Assembly (NCBI GenBank): GCA_016906335.1
Contig: JADEYG010000003.1
Coordinates: forward strand, 62,001-126,000
DNA: 64,000 nt
Source of the DNA: Novakomyces olei
Taxonomy: Eukaryota
Direction: 5' to 3'
The translations under genes and the position numbers were made by a program. Positions 8,291 through 34,070 of the stretch are shown here, piece by piece; position 1 is the first letter of the stretch; each line of letters starts with the position of its first letter. Below the pieces are notes generated by a model. That model ran no database searches, was not told the DNA's origin, and saw only the letters and a program-made list of their open reading frames with translations.

Positions 8291-8821
8291 ATGGGTGAAG
8301 GCATCTTTAGCCAGCTTGCTCCGATGGAAACTCGTTTGAGCGCTCAGATTTCTGCAGTGTGCGACGACGTTACTACACTGAGAACACAATTCACGGCATT
8401 TGGCGCAGACCTCAACGGATGTATGTTTGATTTATTATAAATTTAAGTTTTCTAATAAAATCAGTGACTACAACAACAAAGCAAGAGTCGCGAATAGTCA
8501 CATTCGCAATATAACGAGCAGAATTACTCCGTTGAAAGCGCAGTTCACTAACACTGCCATTGTCGATTTCCCGATAACAGTTCATGAACTGAATTCTTTG
8601 AGCAGTAGGTGTTTAGAGCATGGGTGTTTTTTTTATTAATATTTTTGGGGAAGGTTTGCTTTTGGTTTTCTTTCAGTTTAGTCGCTACATTGAAATTTAT
8701 TGATTTTGGCGTATTTGAATGTAAAAAATTCGGAGCATATCATTTCCTGTGGCCACAGAGTCGAAAAATACGTAAAGCTATACCTTCATTGTTTGCAAAA
8801 CTTTCGCATATTTGCCGATAA
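8291..8821 (+). pseudogene. Degenerate paralog of the DUF1773/Mug135-like gene at 18737-19427
   Basis: Middle exon 8465-8604 reads DYNNKARVANSHIRNITSRITPLKAQFTNTAIVDFPITVHELNSLS, flanked by CAG| and |GTAGGT at the same positions and phases as in the 18.7-19.4 kb gene. Exon 1 (donor GTATGT at 8421) and exon 3 appear out of frame. Confidence 0.6.
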
Positions 8822-9279
8822 TTCAAATCAAGAGAGTAATTCGGTAATATTAGTCTTATACGTTGAAAATAATCGGGGCTGGAAAGACATTTAAGATCTC
8901 CATTTCATAATTTATAAATTCATTTGTTGCTTGTGTGTACGTAGAGCGAGAATGGGCATGCACCAATGCCGCGTACTAGTTTCTTTTTACCGTACGTAAT
9001 AAATTGATAGGAACTGGGAAATTCATACCAAGCAGACATACTAGATGATTCAAGCATTGTTATTAGACAATCAGCTTCATTCAGAATTGCATTTTAATAC
9101 ACTTTGTATCATATTCCAAACTCTTCTCCGAAACAAAACAAAACACAACCAATCGCGCACGGGAACCCTAGCACGATTCCGCGCTATATAGATATCTAGC
9201 ATGTAATTCAAAACTGCTTTCCTTCAATTTTCTCTGTAACGCTTTGTCACTTTATCCTTCTCCTGCCATATATAAGGCT

Positions 9280-15738: not shown

Positions 15739-17438
15739 GATATTTTTGGAGCGGCGATAAAGCGGCCAAACATTCTGTATTGCGTGCGGAGACAGTTTGA
15801 GTGACAGGTTCACGCAAATTTAAAGCTTTAAAGTTAGACAAGACCGCGATGGTTTTTGACTTACCTTATACGTCGCCGACGTATATCTCAGTACTCTAGG
15901 CACTGTATACAAACTCTGAAACTTTTGTCGTGTTATACTCCAACCTGAGTTGGCGTACTAGTTCACTAGAACGTAAGCAATAGGGACAGCAAAACAAAGA
16001 AGAAGAAAAAAAAGCAAAGAAACGTTTGGAAGACAAAAAGTAAAAAAAAGAGCAAGAGTCAGAAATAGCCATTGAAAGATCATGACAGACACATATTAAA
16101 CAAAAAGTGCTGAGTTAATCGTCAAATTGGTTTGCCTACCAGAATCAAAAAGTAAAGTACCAGTGTCCACTTTGCTTTTTGTTTATTCACTCTCTTATCG
16201 GCTGTTGCTTTAACTAAATGAAGCGGTAAACTGACTAGTAAATAGCTTTTCTCTTGTCAAACGTGTTCTTTTCGCCTTCTTGTCGAACGGCCAGCTGTGG
16301 TTTGTCGGAGGTGTCAATTTCAATAACTCTTGGCTTCCTTCGCCAATGCTTTATAGGGCGGAGCCAACTGAATCGTGATTTGCACCTGATAAAATCAGTG
16401 GAGAAATGGACCTTTTAGGGAAGAGATACGGTGCTTAAAGTAATTGTGTTTCCGAAACGATTCATTCAGAATTCTGATCGGACGATAAGACATACTAACA
16501 AGCCTAAGCCTACATTAAAAGAGTCGCTAAAACAACAAACTAAACTTGCTCGACTAAACAGTGATCAACTGCACGTTGTCACAATTAAATTATTGCGAAA
16601 AGAATTGTTCGTTTGCTGAACTCAATTGCTGCTGATGATGTTTGATTATGCTTATACACATTCACCATGGCCCGATTAGGTAGCCGCTGTCATTTGCGGA
16701 GATACGAGATTTCAGTCATATATCTGTCGCTTCCTCTAATATAATGCGCGATAAGAAAAAAACATTAATTCTGTATCGGTACAGCATCATTTATTTTTTC
16801 TTCAGTGTGCTCCAATTAAATAGTAATTTTAACACTAAATTCCTGCCAACGAGGAGTAATTCATTCAGCAACCGTTTGGCCCGCGTCATTGCACGTTTAT
16901 GTGCAATGTAGGCTAAGATATTTGTAATTCAAGTAATACATGCTACCGTCCACCCGGCTAGGGCCAGATGAAGAGCCAATTTGGATTGTATACGAAAAAA
17001 AGCGATGCCATAAAGAAGCGGTACCGTATTTAACGCGCCTTTATTTAACGCACCTTTTAAACACCTAAATCACAAGACAGGGCGTAAGATTGCTTGGTGG
17101 TAAACGAATGATAAGCAATGAGGTAACGGTTATCAAATATATTATTCTTATACTGCCAAAAGGACCTGTCTGCCTATCGCGAACTGGCGCGTTAATTTAT
17201 CGATATACTTAAATTCACTATACATGAAGTTTCCTTTGATCACAGTCGCGTACGACGTATATATTGCTAATACTATAGAGAACTTATTCTGTAAAATGCT
17301 TCTTGTTTTGTGAAAAGATATATTGAAGATTACTTCTACCAGCATTTATAACAGTTAGTGTTAGCGTAAGATAACTAACCCTAAGCCTAACTTATTCTGG
17401 CTTACTATTGCTGAAGACTAGATAGATTGGCTCCAAGA

Positions 17439-17648
17439 TCAGTCACGAGTAACTGTAATAGCGTCAAGTGCCTTGATAAGGATTAAGTTGGCAATAACTC
17501 GCTCACTCATGCCGGACACTGTGCGATCAAGGCGCTCAATAAGGCTGTTAACATTGTCCTCTATATCGTCAAAGCGCTTATTCATAGCTTTACGGATCAG
17601 CATCAGCTCTTGTAGAATTTCGGCACCTATGTCGATTGGACGCTTCAT
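17439..17648 (-). CDS. 69-aa helix/stalk-only homolog of the DUF1773-like gene (ORF2-A)
   Basis: ATG-initiated and open in both duplicate copies. PIDIGAEILQELMLI resembles PIFDQGANILEQLRLL of the full-length gene. Confidence 0.55.
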   Translation of the reverse strand: MKRPIDIGAEILQELMLIRKAMNKRFDDIEDNVNSLIERLDRTVSGMSERVIANLILIKALDAITVTRD

Positions 17649-17910
17649 GGAGCCAGCGAGGAGACTCGAAAGCTATCTGAAATGCAGTATAATAGATATA
17701 AATTGAATTGATAACACGATAATGCTATCGCCTACGTGTATAGTAGGATTATGAGATAGATCCTTAAACTCATGCTGTTTCGAAAACCGCTATTTCGCGT
17801 GTCCATAATTGCGGCCTTGAAAAACCGAATAGGCTTGCTAAAAATAATATATTGCGATCAGTCAGTTCATAATACGAGTAACTTTGATAGTCTTCAAGGA
17901 AAGCAAAACT

Positions 17911-18198
17911 CTATACCTCAATGCGGATATCGTTGGCAACAGCTCGCTCTCTCATGCCAGCCACTGTGCGATCAAGGCGCTCAATTAGTCTGTTAAAATT
18001 GTCCTCCATGTCGTCAAAGCGCTTATCCATATCGTCACAGCGCTTATTCATATCGTCAAAGCGCTTATCGATAGCGTCACAGTGCTTATTCATATCGTCA
18101 AAGTGCTTATCCATACTGTCAAATCCCTTATCCATAGCCTTACCGATCAACTTCAGCTCTCGTAGAATTTCCGCACCTATGTCGATTGAGGGCTTCAT
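17911..18198 (-). CDS. 95-aa helix/stalk-only homolog with 21-nt heptad repeats (ORF1-A)
   Basis: MKPSIDIGAEILRELKLIG, then KGFDSMD KHFDDMN KHCDAID KRFDDMN KRCDDMD KRFDDME. Tandem paralog of ORF2 with a shared upstream AGCTTTCGAGTCTCCTCGCTGGC. Confidence 0.55.
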   Translation of the reverse strand: MKPSIDIGAEILRELKLIGKAMDKGFDSMDKHFDDMNKHCDAIDKRFDDMNKRCDDMDKRFDDMEDNFNRLIERLDRTVAGMRERAVANDIRIEV

Positions 18199-18736
18199 GG
18201 CGCCAGCGAGGAGACTCGAAAGCTATTTTAAGGGCCCTTGATATAAAGCGAGGGTGACTGATTCATATCACTCTCCGTTAATTTGCTTGCTTGACAACAT
18301 GGAACTTATCTCGGGAATCTTCCCATCTCTTTCAATATTTAAATTTATTAATGAAATGATATCTTATCCACCACGCTTTATGTATTTGGGTAGATCATCG
18401 TATTATTTAATAAAAATTTACTTTTAATCTAATATTCTGCTTCCTGCTATCTGATTGAGACCCTCGTAGTATTCTGTTGTCCTACCATCGTGTTTCAAGT
18501 TTTGTCACGTTTTACAAAGAATAGAAATGACCATTTATTAAATTGCTATGCGACGGCCAGATTAAAGGGGGAAAAAACTAATTAGTTAGAAGCTATCTAA
18601 GATATTCATCAATGCCTGATACGCACTGTTTTGGAAAACAAACGAGAGAAACAATTCGAAAAAACAAATGTAAAACAGAATGAAATCAAAATAAAGCAAA
18701 ATAACAGCACCGTCCAATTGAAGCATTCCTAACTGT

Positions 18737-19427
18737 TCAATCAAATTGCATAAAATAGTCCGGAATGGCGAGCAATCCTAGTTGTTTAAGAAGCTTCTTG
18801 ATCTTATGCTGTCTGTTTCCTCTATCGTTAATTCCCAATTCCATCAGAATACGGGAAACCTCAGAGTCTAAAAATTAATGCGAGAAAGATAATCGACACT
18901 TACAATTCAGTCTTAGAACTTCCTCGTATGTAGTAGGAAAGTCTGTGATCGGCTCTCCAGTACTTTTTGACATAAGTGGCTCGATGCGAGACGATACTAA
19001 TTGTGTACGACAATTAATGACTCGCACAGTGCAATTTTGCTCGCTACACAATGTCGCTTAGTAAATATTAATATATATAAAAACTTTACCTCCTCTCGAT
19101 AGAACTTTCGATTTGAGTGAAACGCTCGTTTATTGCCGCAAAGCTCCCATCGTTGGAATCAAACCGGGCTTCCATGAAGTCAAAGCGCCTAGACAAGTCC
19201 TGAAATTGCCTATCGTGGGCCTCCAAGCGCCTAGACAAGTCCTGATATTGCCTATCGTAGGCCTCAAAGCGCCTCTCACTATTTTCGTGAAGCAGCCTCA
19301 ATTGCTCAAGGATATTTGCACCTTGGTCGAAAATCGGCAAATGTAGCAGACCAGAGACAGCCGTTGCTAGTCCATGAATTTGGCCAACAAGGCTAGTAAA
19401 TTCGGGTCGCAAACTGGAAGAATCCAT
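18737..19427 (-). CDS. 202-aa protein: N-terminal helix, heptad-repeat coiled coil, DUF1773/Mug135-like C-terminal domain; exons 19427-19090, 19043-18904, 18867-18737
   Basis: Two canonical GT..AG introns (46 and 36 nt) join in frame to give ...IERSEQNCTVRVINCRTQLVSSRIEPLMSKSTGEPITDFPTTYEEVLRLNYSEVSRILMELGINDRGNRQHKIKKLLKQLGLL...FD*. Family assigned by eye. Confidence 0.8.
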
Positions 19428-20049
19428 GTTGTTTGGTTGTTTGTGGAACAATAGGGTGTGATTTAAAATTGTGTACTGGCTATCGACGTGCGCTATTTTG
19501 TTTTTTAATATTATAAAATGAGGACGCCCATAACTCGGTGTCAGGTTCGCAAATGCGGCCTTTTTTGCATATATATATTTGATCACTATAGGTGTATGGA
19601 CAAGATAGAAGGAGGGCATTTTGGGTACAATAATGTAGAAATCATGCTTTACACACAGGAACGAATTGATGGCAGAATTTGAATCTCGGGTTCTAAAATA
19701 TTTGAAGATTAATCATCCCACGCAATGACACATTGCAACTATTTACGGCGATGAGCATGCCCGGATTCTATTGGCAGGTGCTATCAAGGATTTTCAACTA
19801 AGTGATACAAGCTATTTACTATGATTTGGATATAATATATGCTCATTTTTTCGCTGTTCGAAATTGATCTACTATTCCTTTTTACCACTTGATGTAAATA
19901 TCCCCAAATTAACCAATAATAATTTTATTTATTTACTATTTAGTACTTGAATACAGCTCGTTAGGTTTGCACCTAAACATTATATCTTAATTATTAATAT
20001 AATTAATTAGTAAATTTATTATATATTTAAGATATTATATACTGTTCAT

Positions 20050-20355
20050 TGAAAGGGCCCTAGCTCAACATCGTGTCATGATAATCTAACATTGGGCGGC
20101 CCCCGGTTTATCTCCTTGTAGCCATTTAAACCACTTACTTAAAAGGGATTCTTATTGGAAATGGTATACAAAGGGAACGAAAGATGCATTTGCTCGATCG
20201 CACGTTGTCTATGAAAGGGACCCATTATCCCATAGCTTTACGTAATTTAATATTGATTTTAGTGCTTTGAAACTATTGTTGATTCGAGACGCCGTTATCC
20301 TATAGTTTCGCCTATATTGCAATAGCGCTGCTATCTTGTTTATTTCGATAAGGAC
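20050..20355 (+). mobile_element. Possible degenerate Ty3/gypsy integrase fragment (mirrored at ~30814-31110, minus strand)
   Basis: Across frameshifts: CHDNLTLGG-PG...HLLKRDSYW...AFARS-HV, then PII...FT*FNIDF. This resembles the HHCC zinc-finger region and the start of the integrase core. Confidence 0.35.
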
Positions 20356-20741
20356 TGTGTTGAATTATTTGAAGTTATGTTGAAGTTCGAACGGTTGATA
20401 TTAACTATCTGACTGTAGAAAAGAATGTTAAAGGTCCCCCAAGGTTCAGAGGCGCTGTCAGGGATATATATATATATTATTCAATAATAGATCTGGTAAA
20501 GACAGAATGTAGAAATTAGAGGAGATTTCAGTAAGTAAAGTAGAGACAGAATTATTCATGTAAGACAAGTGATTATTTCAAATAATAGAGTTAAATATAA
20601 GTTATATACTAGCTCATCGATTGGATTTTTTAAGGCTTGGTAGTTGAGAAATTATTCAAAGCAATACTTTTCTATGGCAGCGCTCTATGGAAAATGCAAA
20701 ACGCGAAAAATAAAAACTTAAATGATCAAAAACGATCTGGT

Positions 20742-30273: not shown

Positions 30274-31711
30274 TATCGTGTTTGATCCTTTAAAAGATAT
30301 TTAGCGCTGTTTGGTTGTCTTTAACTCACTTTACGCCCAAAGACGCGTTAGGTACAGAAATGATCAGTAAGGCCGTTTAGACCGGTAAATAATCAAGCGC
30401 GAGACTAAATCGAGAGCTGGATCAAATTATATGCCAGATACAAGTCAGTTTTGTTCTGACTTATGAACCTCAAACCAGCCGGATTGAAGCGATTGATACG
30501 AGTTATCTGGTGTTTTGCAACTGTTTTCGTGTTTTGCTCGGTATTATATGTATTTTTTGTCTATTATCTTACATTACATGCGAAAGTTCAATGGGACAAA
30601 TTCTTTATTTTGTGCGCTTAAATCTACGGCATATTGTGCTAACCTAGCATAGACGTTGGGTCGCTGCCAATATCATATATTATAGATCAAACAAATATAT
30701 GTTGCCTAAAGTTTATAGTATAAATTTTATATAAAATAGTAATATTTAATATTAATATATAATATGTATGTTAGGACCCAAACCAATATTTGAATTAAAA
30801 CCTAACTATCCAATCCTTATCAAAATAAACAAGGTAGCAGCGCTATTGCAATATAGGCGAAACTATAGGATAACGGCGTCTTGAATCAACCATAGTTTCA
30901 AAGCACTATAATCAATATTAAATTACGTAGAGCTATGGGGTAATGGGTCCCTTTAATAGACCACGGGCGATCGAGCAAATGCATCTTTCGTTCCCTTTGT
31001 ATACCATTTCCAATAAGAATCACTTAAGTGGTTTAAGTGGCTACAAGGAGATAAACCAGGGGTAGCCCAATGTTAGATTATCATGACACGATGTTGAGCT
31101 AGAGCCCTTTCAATGAACAGTAATATCTTAAATATATAATAAATTTACTAATTAATTATATTAATAATTAAGATATAATGTTTAGGTGCAAACCTAACAA
31201 GCTATATTCATGTACTAAATAGTAAATAAATAAAATTAGGTGGTAAAAAGGAATAATAGATCAATTTCGAACAGCGAAAAAATGAACATATATTATATCC
31301 AAATCATAGTAAATAGCTTGTATCACTTAGTTGAAAATCCTTGATAGCCACCTGCCAATAGAATCCGGGCACGCTCATCGCCGTAAATAGTTGCAATGTG
31401 TCATTGCGTGGGATGATTAATCTTCAAATATTTTAGAACCGAGATTCAAATTCTGCCATCAATTCGTTCCTGTGAGTAAAGCATGATTTTTACATTATTG
31501 TACCCAAAATGCCCTCCTTCTATCTTGTCCATACACCTATAGTGATCAAATATATATATATATGCAAAAAAGGCCGCATTTGCGAACCTGACACCGAGTT
31601 ATGGGCAGAGAATGGCCTCATTTTATAATATTAAAAAACAAAATAGCGCACGTCGATAGCCAGTACACAATTTTAAATCACACCCTATTGTTCCACAAAC
31701 AACCAAACAAC

Positions 31712-31903
31712 ATGGCTTCTTCCAGTTTGCGACCCGAATTTACTAGCCTTGTTCGCCAAATTCATGAAATAGCAACGGGTGTTTCTGGTCTGCTACATTT
31801 GCCGATTTTCGACCAAGGTGCAAGGTGCAAACATCCTTGAGCAATTGAGGCTGCTTCACGAAAATAGTGAGAGGCACTTTGAGGCCTACGATAGGCAGTT
31901 TCA
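31712..31903 (+). pseudogene. Disrupted copy of the DUF1773-like gene
   Basis: MASSSLRPEFTSLV... A 7-bp duplication CAAGGTG (31814-31827) frameshifts to TGA at 31838. Most of the stalk and both C-terminal exons are deleted. Confidence 0.9.
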
Positions 31904-32071
31904 TAAGATATCATTTCATTAATAAATTTAAATATTGAAAAAGATGGGAAGATTCCCCAAATAAGTTCCACGTTGTCAAGCAAGCAAATTAACGGAGAGT
32001 GATATGAATCAGTCACCCTCGCTTTATATCAAGGGCACTTAAGATAGCTTTCGAGTCTCCTCGCTGGCGCC

Positions 32072-32275
32072 ATGAAGCCCTCAATCGACATAGGTGCGTA
32101 AATTCTACGAGAGCTGAAGTTGATCGGTAAGGCTATGGATGAGGGATTTGACAGTATGGATAAGCACTTTGACGACATGGAGGACAATTTTAACAGACTA
32201 ATTGAACGCCTTGATCGCACAGTGGCTGGCATGAGAGAGCGAGCTGTTGCCAACGATATCCGCATTGAGGTATAG
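32072..32275 (+). pseudogene. Disrupted ORF1 copy (ORF1-B)
   Basis: GAA>TAA at codon 10 (32099-32101). It is 84 bp (4 x 21 nt) shorter than ORF1-A. Confidence 0.8.
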
Positions 32276-32533
32276 AGTTTTACTTTCCTTGAAGACTATC
32301 AAATTTACTCGTATTATGAACTGATCGCAATATATTATTTTTAGCAAGCCTATTCGGTTTTTCAAGGCCGCAATTATGGACACGCGAAATAGCGGTTTTC
32401 GAAACAGCACGAGTTTAAGGATCTATGTCATAATCCTACTATACACGTAGGCGATAGCATTATCGTATTATCAATTTAATTTATATTTATTATACTGCAT
32501 TTCAGACAGCTTTCGAGTCTCCTCGCTGGCTCC

Positions 32534-32740
32534 ATGAAGCCTCCAATCGACATAGGTGCCGAAATTCTACAAGAGCTGATGCTGATCCGTAAAGCTATGG
32601 ATGAGCGCTTTGACGATATAGAAGACAATGTTAACAGCCTTACTGAACGCCTTGATCGCACAGTGTCCGGCATGAGTGAGCGAGTTATTGCCAACTTAAT
32701 CCTTATCAAGGCACTTGAGGCTATTAGAAGTTACTCGTGA
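32534..32740 (+). CDS. 68-aa helix/stalk-only ORF (ORF2-B), intact
   Basis: Near-identical to 17439-17648. It is the only open cassette ORF in copy B. Confidence 0.55.
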   Translation: MKPPIDIGAEILQELMLIRKAMDERFDDIEDNVNSLTERLDRTVSGMSERVIANLILIKALEAIRSYS

Positions 32741-32791
32741 CTGATCTTGGAGCCAATCTATATAGTCTTCAGCCATAGTAAGCCAGAGTAA

Positions 32792-32811
32792 GTTAGGCTT
32801 AGGGTTAGTTA
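32792..32811. promoter_or_regulatory. TTAGGG-box variant (GTTAGGCTTAGGGTTAGTTA) upstream of the phosducin-like gene; duplicated at 17372-17391
   Basis: About 225 bp upstream of the ATG at 33036. Confidence 0.5.
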
Positions 32812-33035
32812 TCTTACGCATACACTAACTGTTATAAATGCTAGCAGAAATAATCTTTAATATATCTTTTCACAAAACGAGGAGCATTTTACAGAATAAG
32901 TTCTATAGTATTAGCAATATATACGTCGTACGCGACTGTGATCAAGAAACTTCATGTATAATATAATATAGTGAATTTAAGTATATCGATAAATTAACGC
33001 GCCAGTTCGCGATAGGCAGACAAGTCCTTTTGGCA

Positions 33036-34070
33036 ATGGCGGCGAGGGTCGATGAGCTAGCAAACGTATATGCCCGCGACGTGCGGCAAACAAAAGAGTC
33101 CGTGGAACAAGACGATTTGGCAGACATTATTGACGCGGAGGAGGACGACGGTTTTAGTCTCGGAGCTTATCGCGAGGCACGTCGTGAACAGCTCGCGAAG
33201 GAGTAAGTCTAGACTTTTTTGTGGACTATTTCTTATCGTTCAACAGGCTTCAAAAGGCGCAGTTGCTTCACAAGGAAGGCCATGGCGCTATTCATAATTG
33301 TTCTTCGGAGAAGGAGTTTCTTGATCTATCTGTGTATGTGACCCCTAAGAACGAATAATATGGACAAGACACGATCCCGACGATAACGACGACAACTAAC
33401 GTGTAAAGAAAGACCAAGGTTATGATTGGTAGTGTATATCACAAGGATTTCCGGCGCTGTGAAATTTTGCGGCGGCACCTGGAGGTATCATTGGGCTCTT
33501 TGTATTAGTTTACGGCATTTCTCATCAGTTTCTATGCTTTTGTTAAATACCTTTTTTTATTATTTTTTATTTTATTATTTTAATTTTTTTTTGCCAGTCT
33601 ATCTCCAACGCTCGTTTCTCACTACATCGCTAACCTAACACTACAATCTAGACTCTCGCTGAAAAGCATTGGCGGACAAAATTTGTGAGTTTAAATGCTC
33701 AAGAAGCGCCCTTTCTGTGCACTAAACTGGGGATCCGCATACTCCCTTGCGTGCTACTTTTTCGAGACGGTCATCTCGTGGACCGGTATTACTTTGCCAT
33801 AGCTGTATGCTATAGACTAAATATCTAGTATTGTCGGATTTGATGATTTGGGGAATCGGGATGACTTTCCGACTCTAGCCTTGGAGGAGCGCATTTCGCG
33901 CAGTGGTACGGAAAGAGAGACTGCTTGTCGCTGATAGCTTAGGTGTATTTTCCGCGTCAGGCGAGACGCCTAATGTGGCACGTAAGAGCGATTGGATGAC
34001 GAGGTCGTTGAACAAGACTAGTTTGTCGAAGCCTCGAGACGATAGTGACGATGACTTGGATATTGATTGA
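33036..34070 (+). CDS. PLP1: Phosducin-like / thioredoxin-fold protein (Plp1/TXNDC9-like), many short exons
   Basis: Not in the ORF track. Exons give MAARVDELA...AYREARREQLAKE, EGHGAIH, HKDFRRCEILRRHLE, LAEKHWRTKFVSLNAQEAPFLCTKLGIRILPCV, VGFDDLGNRDDFPT-ALEERI, ending DSDDDLDID*. Confidence 0.9.

Follow-up and report, generated by a model that had tools for sequence, protein, structure and literature searches.

ORF95 and ORF69 are two short open reading frames (ORFs) on the minus strand of a 64,000-nucleotide stretch of Novakomyces olei DNA (GCA_016906335.1, contig JADEYG010000003.1, positions 62,001 to 126,000), referred to here as the window and used as the frame for all coordinates below. 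They lie beside a full-length gene whose 202-amino-acid product combines a coiled-coil stalk with a small C-terminal domain (CTD), and they are probably CTD-less partial tandem duplicates of the stalk segment of such a gene, persisting as decaying or neutral relics. Both ORFs are paralogs of the stalk, both are truncated before the CTD, a second copy of the array carries lesions, and coding and non-coding positions have diverged evenly between the two copies. The inverted duplicate of the whole array is a new finding here. Most likely the short ORFs are non-functional pseudogene fragments whose frames have stayed open owing to their shortness and recent origin.

Gene fragments lying beside their parent are an ordinary outcome of local duplication. 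With regard to annotation, RNA evidence would be needed before the short ORFs are listed as members of the family, and the surrounding family of stalk and CTD proteins is the more interesting part of the locus.

Stalk paralogy and truncation of the short ORFs

The full-length gene (18737–19427, three exons), ORF95 (17911–18198, 95 amino acids) and ORF69 (17439–17648, 69 amino acids) form three co-oriented features, all on the minus strand, with the two short ORFs situated 0.5–1.3 kb downstream of the full gene. The original prediction had described both ORFs in this position and orientation, with a start (IDIGAEIL) that aligns with the full gene, retained heptad repeats and an end about where the CTD would begin, and each of these points is confirmed by the comparisons that follow.

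Aligned with residues 31–113 of exon 1 of the full gene, ORF95 is identical at 25 of 83 positions (30%) without gaps, with an E-value of 1e-16 in a single BLASTP comparison. The alignment opens at PSIDIGAEIL in ORF95 and PIFDQGANIL in exon 1. ORF95 and ORF69 align with one another at E=3e-19 with a single gap of 35 amino acids, which corresponds to five units of 21 nucleotides (7 amino acids) and therefore establishes that the heptad periodicity is real. ORF95 is made up of the N-terminal PSIDIGAEIL motif, approximately six to seven of these units of the D-K-R/H-F/C-D-D/A-M type and a ERLDRTVAGMRER tail, and harbours a run of six 21-nucleotide heptad-coding direct repeats at 18005–18136 on the minus strand, while ORF69 retains a single repeat unit. 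A P.[IF]D.GA.IL-like motif and 7-residue RFD-type repeats are present in ORF95, ORF69 and the full gene.

The likeness of the short ORFs to the full gene is in part driven by the repeats, judging from a profile of four stalk sequences which, searched against 1.84 billion proteins, gave 3838 matches at E≤0.001 and 187 at E≤1e-10. Among the 17 sequences read from these matches, 16 were short DKRFD-type heptad proteins without a CTD; proteins of this kind are the top matches here, as they are in a metagenome scan (71 loci), and the repeat alone is therefore no family marker. The D-K-R-F-D-x-x heptad inflates E-values in any search with the short ORFs. On sequence grounds, what makes their paralogy with the full gene convincing is the non-repeat N-terminal motif combined with their adjacency. 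A word-based search of proteins of near length with ORF95 gave two matches, P0002 and P0003, on the repeats only, and a word-based search of longer proteins with exon 1 gave nothing at E≤0.001 among 1537 candidates. The ESM Atlas search with ORF95 returned only generic bacterial coiled-coil clusters, and a Pfam scan of all pieces produced nothing above the cut-offs.

Both short ORFs end where the CTD of the full gene starts. No CTD remnant was found beside ORF95 or ORF69 by tblastn with exon 2, exon 3 and the public family proteins P0097 and P0154 (described below) as queries. A local CTD profile, scanned over six-frame pieces of 17100–18260 and 31900–33100 (174 pieces in all, with controls counted), gave a best E-value of 0.67 for these regions, on the wrong strand; the controls, themselves members of the profile, scored 8.8e-23 to 2.4e-15.

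The stop codon of ORF95 is the TAG within a donor-like GTATAG. An intron-like stretch follows ORF95 at 17838–17916 (minus strand), read from the sequence as GTATAG ... ACTGAC ... TTTTTAG, and if it were spliced, 15 further codons would be added before a stop. The last ten or so codons of ORF69 line up with this same stretch (repeat family D10). With ORF95 stopping inside a donor-like hexamer and ORF69 running into sequence that resembles what follows ORF95, the two ends differ and look accidental.

The donor-like GTATAG at the end of ORF95, along with an acceptor-like TTTCAGATAG immediately before the conserved 5' flank of ORF69, can also be read as a sign that the two ORFs are exons of one longer transcript, with ORF95 spliced to ORF69 at an ATAG acceptor 24 nucleotides before the ORF69 ATG, or that they serve as alternative 3' exons of the full gene. 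A join directly after ATAG would keep the frame. However, a transcript passing from the exon 1 or exon 2 donor to an acceptor before ORF95 meets stops within about 10–30 codons, and the product would still be without a CTD, such that a longer transcript of either kind is considered very unlikely.

On the upstream side, the similarity of the ORF95 and ORF69 units ends 33 nucleotides before the ATG. The next 60 nucleotides are identical at only 16 positions, and the alignment score further upstream was equalled by 389 of 500 shuffles. With upstream similarity lost beyond 33 nucleotides, no promoter appears to have been co-duplicated with the short ORFs.

As partial tandem duplicates, the short ORFs would derive from a small duplicated unit, extending from about 33 nucleotides before the ATG to a point shortly beyond the stalk. 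Such a unit, without the N-terminus of about 30 amino acids, a recognisable inherited promoter or the CTD, would represent a small internal piece of a family gene. Its repeat number would then have drifted through slippage or unequal exchange, leaving about 6–7, 3 and 1 units in the different copies. At a later stage the 3.2-kb array would have been duplicated in inverted orientation 10.4 kb away, with that copy now decaying. If translated, the short ORFs would give single-helix peptides devoid of the family's effector-like domain.

The inverted second copy and its divergence

The whole 3.2-kb array, comprising the full gene, ORF95, ORF69 and their flanks (copy 1, 17154–20357, minus strand), is duplicated in inverted orientation at 30811–33035 (copy 2, plus strand), with 91–97% identity by blastn segment. 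Copy 2 measures 2.2 kb after deletions and is decaying, with two of its three genes broken. The copy of the full gene (31712–31902, plus strand) is dead, having acquired a 7-nucleotide duplication at 31814–31820, which shifts the frame, followed by an 876-bp deletion that matches 18368–19243. The copy of ORF95 (32072–32275, plus strand) contains a GAA to TAA change at codon 10 (32099–32101) and has lost 84 nucleotides, equivalent to four repeat units. The ORF69 copy alone is still open (32534–32740, plus strand, 68 amino acids), differing from ORF69 by five non-synonymous and two synonymous codon changes and by a 1-nucleotide indel that rewrites its tail.

Between the two copies lie 10.4 kb holding the genes for a Cyp40-like cyclophilin, a WLM-ubiquitin protein and a CorA transporter, and on its right side copy 2 extends up to the start codon of the gene that follows (33036). 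The inverted repeats (17154–20357 and 30811–33035) could mediate inversion of the segment between them.

Over 2195 aligned positions, copy 1 and copy 2 differ at 74 (3.4%). These comprise 21 differences in 597 coding positions and 53 in 1596 non-coding ones, so there is no coding deficit and the flanks are as conserved as the coding DNA. By feature, differences amount to 3 of 204 positions in ORF95, 8 of 210 in ORF69 and 10 of 183 in the retained part of exon 1, with non-coding rows ranging from 2 of 107 to 12 of 281 and, for the longest, 27 of 889. Transitions number 47 and transversions 27, and with 36 GC-to-AT and 26 AT-to-GC changes there is no strong direction; repeat-induced point mutation (RIP) was therefore rejected as the cause of this divergence.

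Two of the differences between the copies are common to both short ORFs: an AAG to GAG change at codon 24 (17577–17579 and 18127–18129), and a GAG to GAA change in the ..I/T-E-R-L.. codon (17535–17537 and 17979–17981). Such a pattern points to gene conversion of short tracts, acting between the tandem paralogs once the segment had been duplicated.

Recurrence of the three-gene order elsewhere, and a ratio of non-synonymous to synonymous divergence (dN/dS) below 1, had been named in the original prediction as checks on a functional role for the short ORFs. The gene order recurs in one other place, the inverted duplicate, where it is kept only because the segment was copied as a block; this is, however, a recent segmental copy in which two of the three genes then broke. 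The comparison of ORF95 with ORF69 over 59 alignable codons gave a dN of 0.14, a dS of 0.27–0.29 and a dN/dS of 0.49–0.53, the underlying counts being 17.8 changes for 138.5 non-synonymous sites and 9.2 for 38.5 synonymous ones (Fisher p=0.13). The point estimate thus falls on the side looked for but is not distinguishable from 1, and would fit either relaxed constraint or a degree of constraint in the past.

Several observations weigh against regarding the short ORFs as relics. The dN/dS point estimate is below 1, and the ATG is kept in all four short copies, three of which are open, with ORF69 open in both copies of the array. The 33 nucleotides before the ATG are identical between the two units at 30 of 33 positions, compared with 150 of 177 in the coding part. 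Moreover, the comparison of copy 1 with copy 2 was made without an outgroup, and its changes are assignable to neither copy, while little can be concluded for copy 1 from the state of copy 2, since a redundant duplicate would be expected to decay anyway. Lastly, computational co-folding, discussed in the final section, lends weak support to an assembly of ORF95 with the stalk of the full-length protein.

Open frames, a conserved ATG and a dN/dS of around 0.5 would also fit real small genes, encoding single-helix coiled-coil proteins with a role independent of their neighbour. Short proteins with the same heptad are common elsewhere, as evident from the 3838 profile matches, and the two ORFs have in common the heptamer TTATATC, found at 18240–18246 and 17695–17701 on the minus strand, 48 and 53 nucleotides upstream of the ATGs of ORF95 and ORF69, respectively. 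The surroundings of this heptamer, however, align no better than shuffled sequence. Furthermore, the divergence is like that of non-coding DNA, the 3' ends look accidental and the ORF95 copy contains a stop. Public proteins offer little for this reading either, given that P0002 and P0003 match on the repeats only and that neither the N-terminal motif nor the CTD occurs in any of the 71 loci confirmed in a metagenome scan, where only chance-level matches (E=0.15 and E=0.66) were obtained. Independent small genes are thus regarded as unlikely. The description of the short ORFs as decayed tandem duplicates, which the original prediction had held as its fallback, is supported by their truncation, by the broken copy 2 and by the even divergence.

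The full-length gene and its family

The window is fungal-looking, with short GT..AG introns, and among its genes are those for a Fungal_trans_2 protein, a PDR-type ABC transporter, a copper amine oxidase and a PUF protein, in addition to the cyclophilin, WLM-ubiquitin and CorA genes already mentioned. Several intact and broken copies of the family to which the full gene belongs are contained within these 64 kb.

The full gene is composed of exons at 19427–19090, 19043–18904 and 18867–18737, separated by introns of 46 nucleotides (GTAAAG..TGTAG) and 36 nucleotides (GTAAGT..TTTTAG), with one terminal stop in its 202-amino-acid product. The protein consists of an N-terminus of about 30 amino acids, the coiled-coil stalk and a CTD of about 90 amino acids. 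An in-frame upstream ATG at 19619 would give it 64 more residues (19428–19619, minus strand). This upstream stretch is rich in A and T, contains a TATATATA run around 19575 and differs in copy 2 by indels of 4 and 7 nucleotides; it is more likely to be promoter or 5' untranslated region than coding sequence.

Its sequence places the full gene in an unnamed fungal family typified by P0097, a JGI metagenome protein of 163 amino acids, and P0154, a protein of 103 amino acids from NCBI/ENA, in which a stalk of RFD-type heptads is joined to a CTD of about 85–90 amino acids. Across the stalk as well as the CTD, the spliced 202-amino-acid protein aligns collinearly with P0097 (BLASTP E=3.5e-16, 28% identity over 143 amino acids; phmmer 48 bits in a two-sequence database). 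The CTD motifs of the family, N..R..N, PL, I.[DQ]FP and L..LG, are found in the full gene and in a paralog exon at 8466–8603. In comparison with this P0097-type family, ORF95 and ORF69 have in common the stalk and the motif before it, whereas the CTD is wholly missing from both.

Taken by itself, the CTD provides a weak link, as single exons compared with P0097 by BLASTP were not significant. In hhalign, a two-sequence profile of exon 2 matched P0097/P0154 over 39 columns (E=0.013), and the register was the one expected. P0154 is 58% identical to the CTD of P0097, and a word-based search with the latter recovered only P0097 and P0154, the cluster look-up being without names. Residues 49–66 of P0154 form an 18-amino-acid insert exactly at the position of intron 2 of the full gene. 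This insert is probably an unspliced intron in the public gene call, which would make the intron position a shared one.

The L.PL...FP.[TS] motif was found in P0097 alone among 153 proteins, namely the 150 matches listed of the 3838 together with P0001 (exon 1 of the full gene), P0002 and P0003. The short DKRFD-heptad proteins have the 7-residue repeat as in the stalk, with neither the fungal CTD nor a PSIDIGAEIL-type motif, and show sub-threshold Pfam matches to DUF7310, XhlA, UPF0184 and DUF16; by eye they look prokaryotic, in a library that carries no taxonomy. The heptad likeness of these apparently prokaryotic proteins (P0004–P0153; L001–L071) to the fungal stalk is probably convergent.

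A distant family member is located outside the array at 8291–8830 on the plus strand, with a CTD exon (8466–8603) that shares 37% identity with exon 2 of the full gene. In this member the frame is lost when the canonical donor GTATGT at 8421 is used and is preserved only by a GTTTGA donor at 8425, such that the gene may be frameshifted or may use an unusual donor. Its last part is seemingly split by a further intron.

Comparison with Tdk1/Mug135 and other drivers

The original prediction had cast the short ORFs as candidates for separate antidotes, or dominant-negative partners, of a killer protein resembling a single-gene, stalk-bearing system of S. pombe; that system is tdk1/mug135, from a family of killer meiotic drivers defined by the IPR013902 (PF08593) domain. 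Tdk1 is a single protein that acts as both toxin and antidote (PMC11551393, PMC11551426), with toxicity decided by the oligomeric state of its helical part (PMC11551426). By analogy, the short ORFs would be expressed and would co-assemble with the coiled coil of the full protein, constituting a multi-gene Tdk1-like system, for which we see very little likelihood. Equally slim is the chance that the translated stalk-only products would thread into that coiled coil and either lock it into a toxic assembly or remove it from one. Were it true, a Tdk-like system would here be split over several genes, as a toxin/antidote or driver/suppressor pair, and would occur in a lineage where the family has so far gone unrecognised. 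The inverted copy 2 would then represent a half-decayed resistant or suppressor haplotype that keeps one short ORF. An InterPro-based survey records the IPR013902 domain in 0 of 832 Pezizomycotina species (bioRxiv 10.64898/2025.12.28.696746).

Such an arrangement draws on the retention of a stalk in which F and M/I/L recur at heptad spacing, on the role of the helical part in Tdk1 toxicity, and on co-folding. ESMFold2 co-folding of ORF95 with residues 29–113 of the full gene gave a median score of 0.34 (0.35, 0.34 and 0.31), the best of three controls being 0.00; the runs agreed in at least 91% of contacts and partner predicted local distance difference test (pLDDT) values were at least 80. 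In the calibration, 51 of 78 solved complexes and 2 of 108 mismatched pairs attained the mark, and scores at or below 0.60 comprised only 5 of the 78 solved complexes and all 4 passing mismatches (of 180). The predicted assembly with the stalk of the 202-amino-acid protein, which had been among the expectations for antidote partners, was thus obtained relative to controls, although the support it lends is weak. Coiled coils related by descent can be expected to pair in such predictions regardless of function, and co-folding does not address expression.

The argument depends on the full gene itself being Tdk-like, and this premise could not be shown, nor was any evidence found that the gene is toxic. 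PF08593 had no match on exon 2 or exon 3 (E≤1 and E≤10), on P0154 (E≤10) or on P0097; the spliced CTD was scanned as two separate exons, by which a weak whole-domain match could be missed. PF07957 (DUF3294) was likewise without a match on P0154 or either CTD exon, exon 2 and exon 3, with the threshold relaxed to E≤10; on P0097 its 13.4 bits (E=0.064) fell short of the 20.6-bit cut-off, with residues 80–125 aligned to profile positions 84–133 of 213. Sequence searches of the PDB gave coiled-coil look-alikes or nothing, with no Tdk1 chain among the matches listed. In an ESM-Atlas feature search with the CTD of P0097 (residues 76–163), the nearest cluster was named DUF3294 (score 0.88, 188 of 256 features), a cluster of 253 members from Ascomycota with Mug135_C on 18% of them. 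This possible link of the P0097 CTD to DUF3294/Mug135_C clusters, which would favour the antidote arrangement, is treated as a lead only.

Further points stand against an antidote function. Selection on the short ORFs is not demonstrable, and disruption of the ORF95 copy in copy 2 was tolerated. The antidote of Tdk1 is the full-length protein, and the portions of the two accounts used here make no mention of a stalk-only antidote (PMC11551393, PMC11551426); a single-protein system of this kind differs from one relying on a stalk fragment. The view of the short ORFs as relics finds support in the criteria applied to the Tdk family. In the family survey, 49 of 93 tdk loci are pseudogenes, with tandem pseudogene pairs and internal repeats, and pseudogenes are defined there by an inactivating mutation or a terminal truncation (bioRxiv 10.64898/2025.12.28.696746). 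By analogy with those criteria, truncated ORFs such as ORF95 and ORF69 would count as pseudogenes.

Among other drivers, the wtf poison-antidote genes encode multi-pass membrane proteins. Unlike these, the 202-amino-acid protein has no transmembrane-like segment, the highest 19-residue Kyte-Doolittle mean being 1.24.

The Tdk family differs from the present one in size and in its N-terminal region. Tdk1 has 357 amino acids as opposed to the 202 of the full gene, and the N-terminal region of Tdk proteins is described in the same survey as containing a Z-shaped domain, with a PP motif as the joint to the C-terminal region (bioRxiv 10.64898/2025.12.28.696746). The full protein lacks such a long N-terminal domain, having only about 30 residues before the stalk, and contains no PP dipeptide in exon 1 or in the CTD. 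Models of the P0097 CTD are of low confidence (pLDDT 41–59 within full P0097, mean 55.1 for the CTD alone), and Foldseek found no PDB structure matching at E≤0.001. The stalk is better predicted, with a helix over residues 14–95 in the AlphaFold2 model of P0097 and a pLDDT of 84–94 over residues 21–70.

While membership of the full gene in the Tdk family could not be shown, the two appear alike in architecture and in their pseudogene-rich habit. In Tdk1/Mug135 of Schizosaccharomyces, as in this family, a long alpha-helix directly precedes a small CTD, and the Tdk family likewise exists in multiple copies, many of them broken or truncated, and shows tandem pairs as well as internal repeats. If the DUF3294/Mug135_C link were confirmed, the Tdk-like superfamily would be extended and drive would become testable in a new lineage, with the stalk-only copies as natural suppressor candidates.

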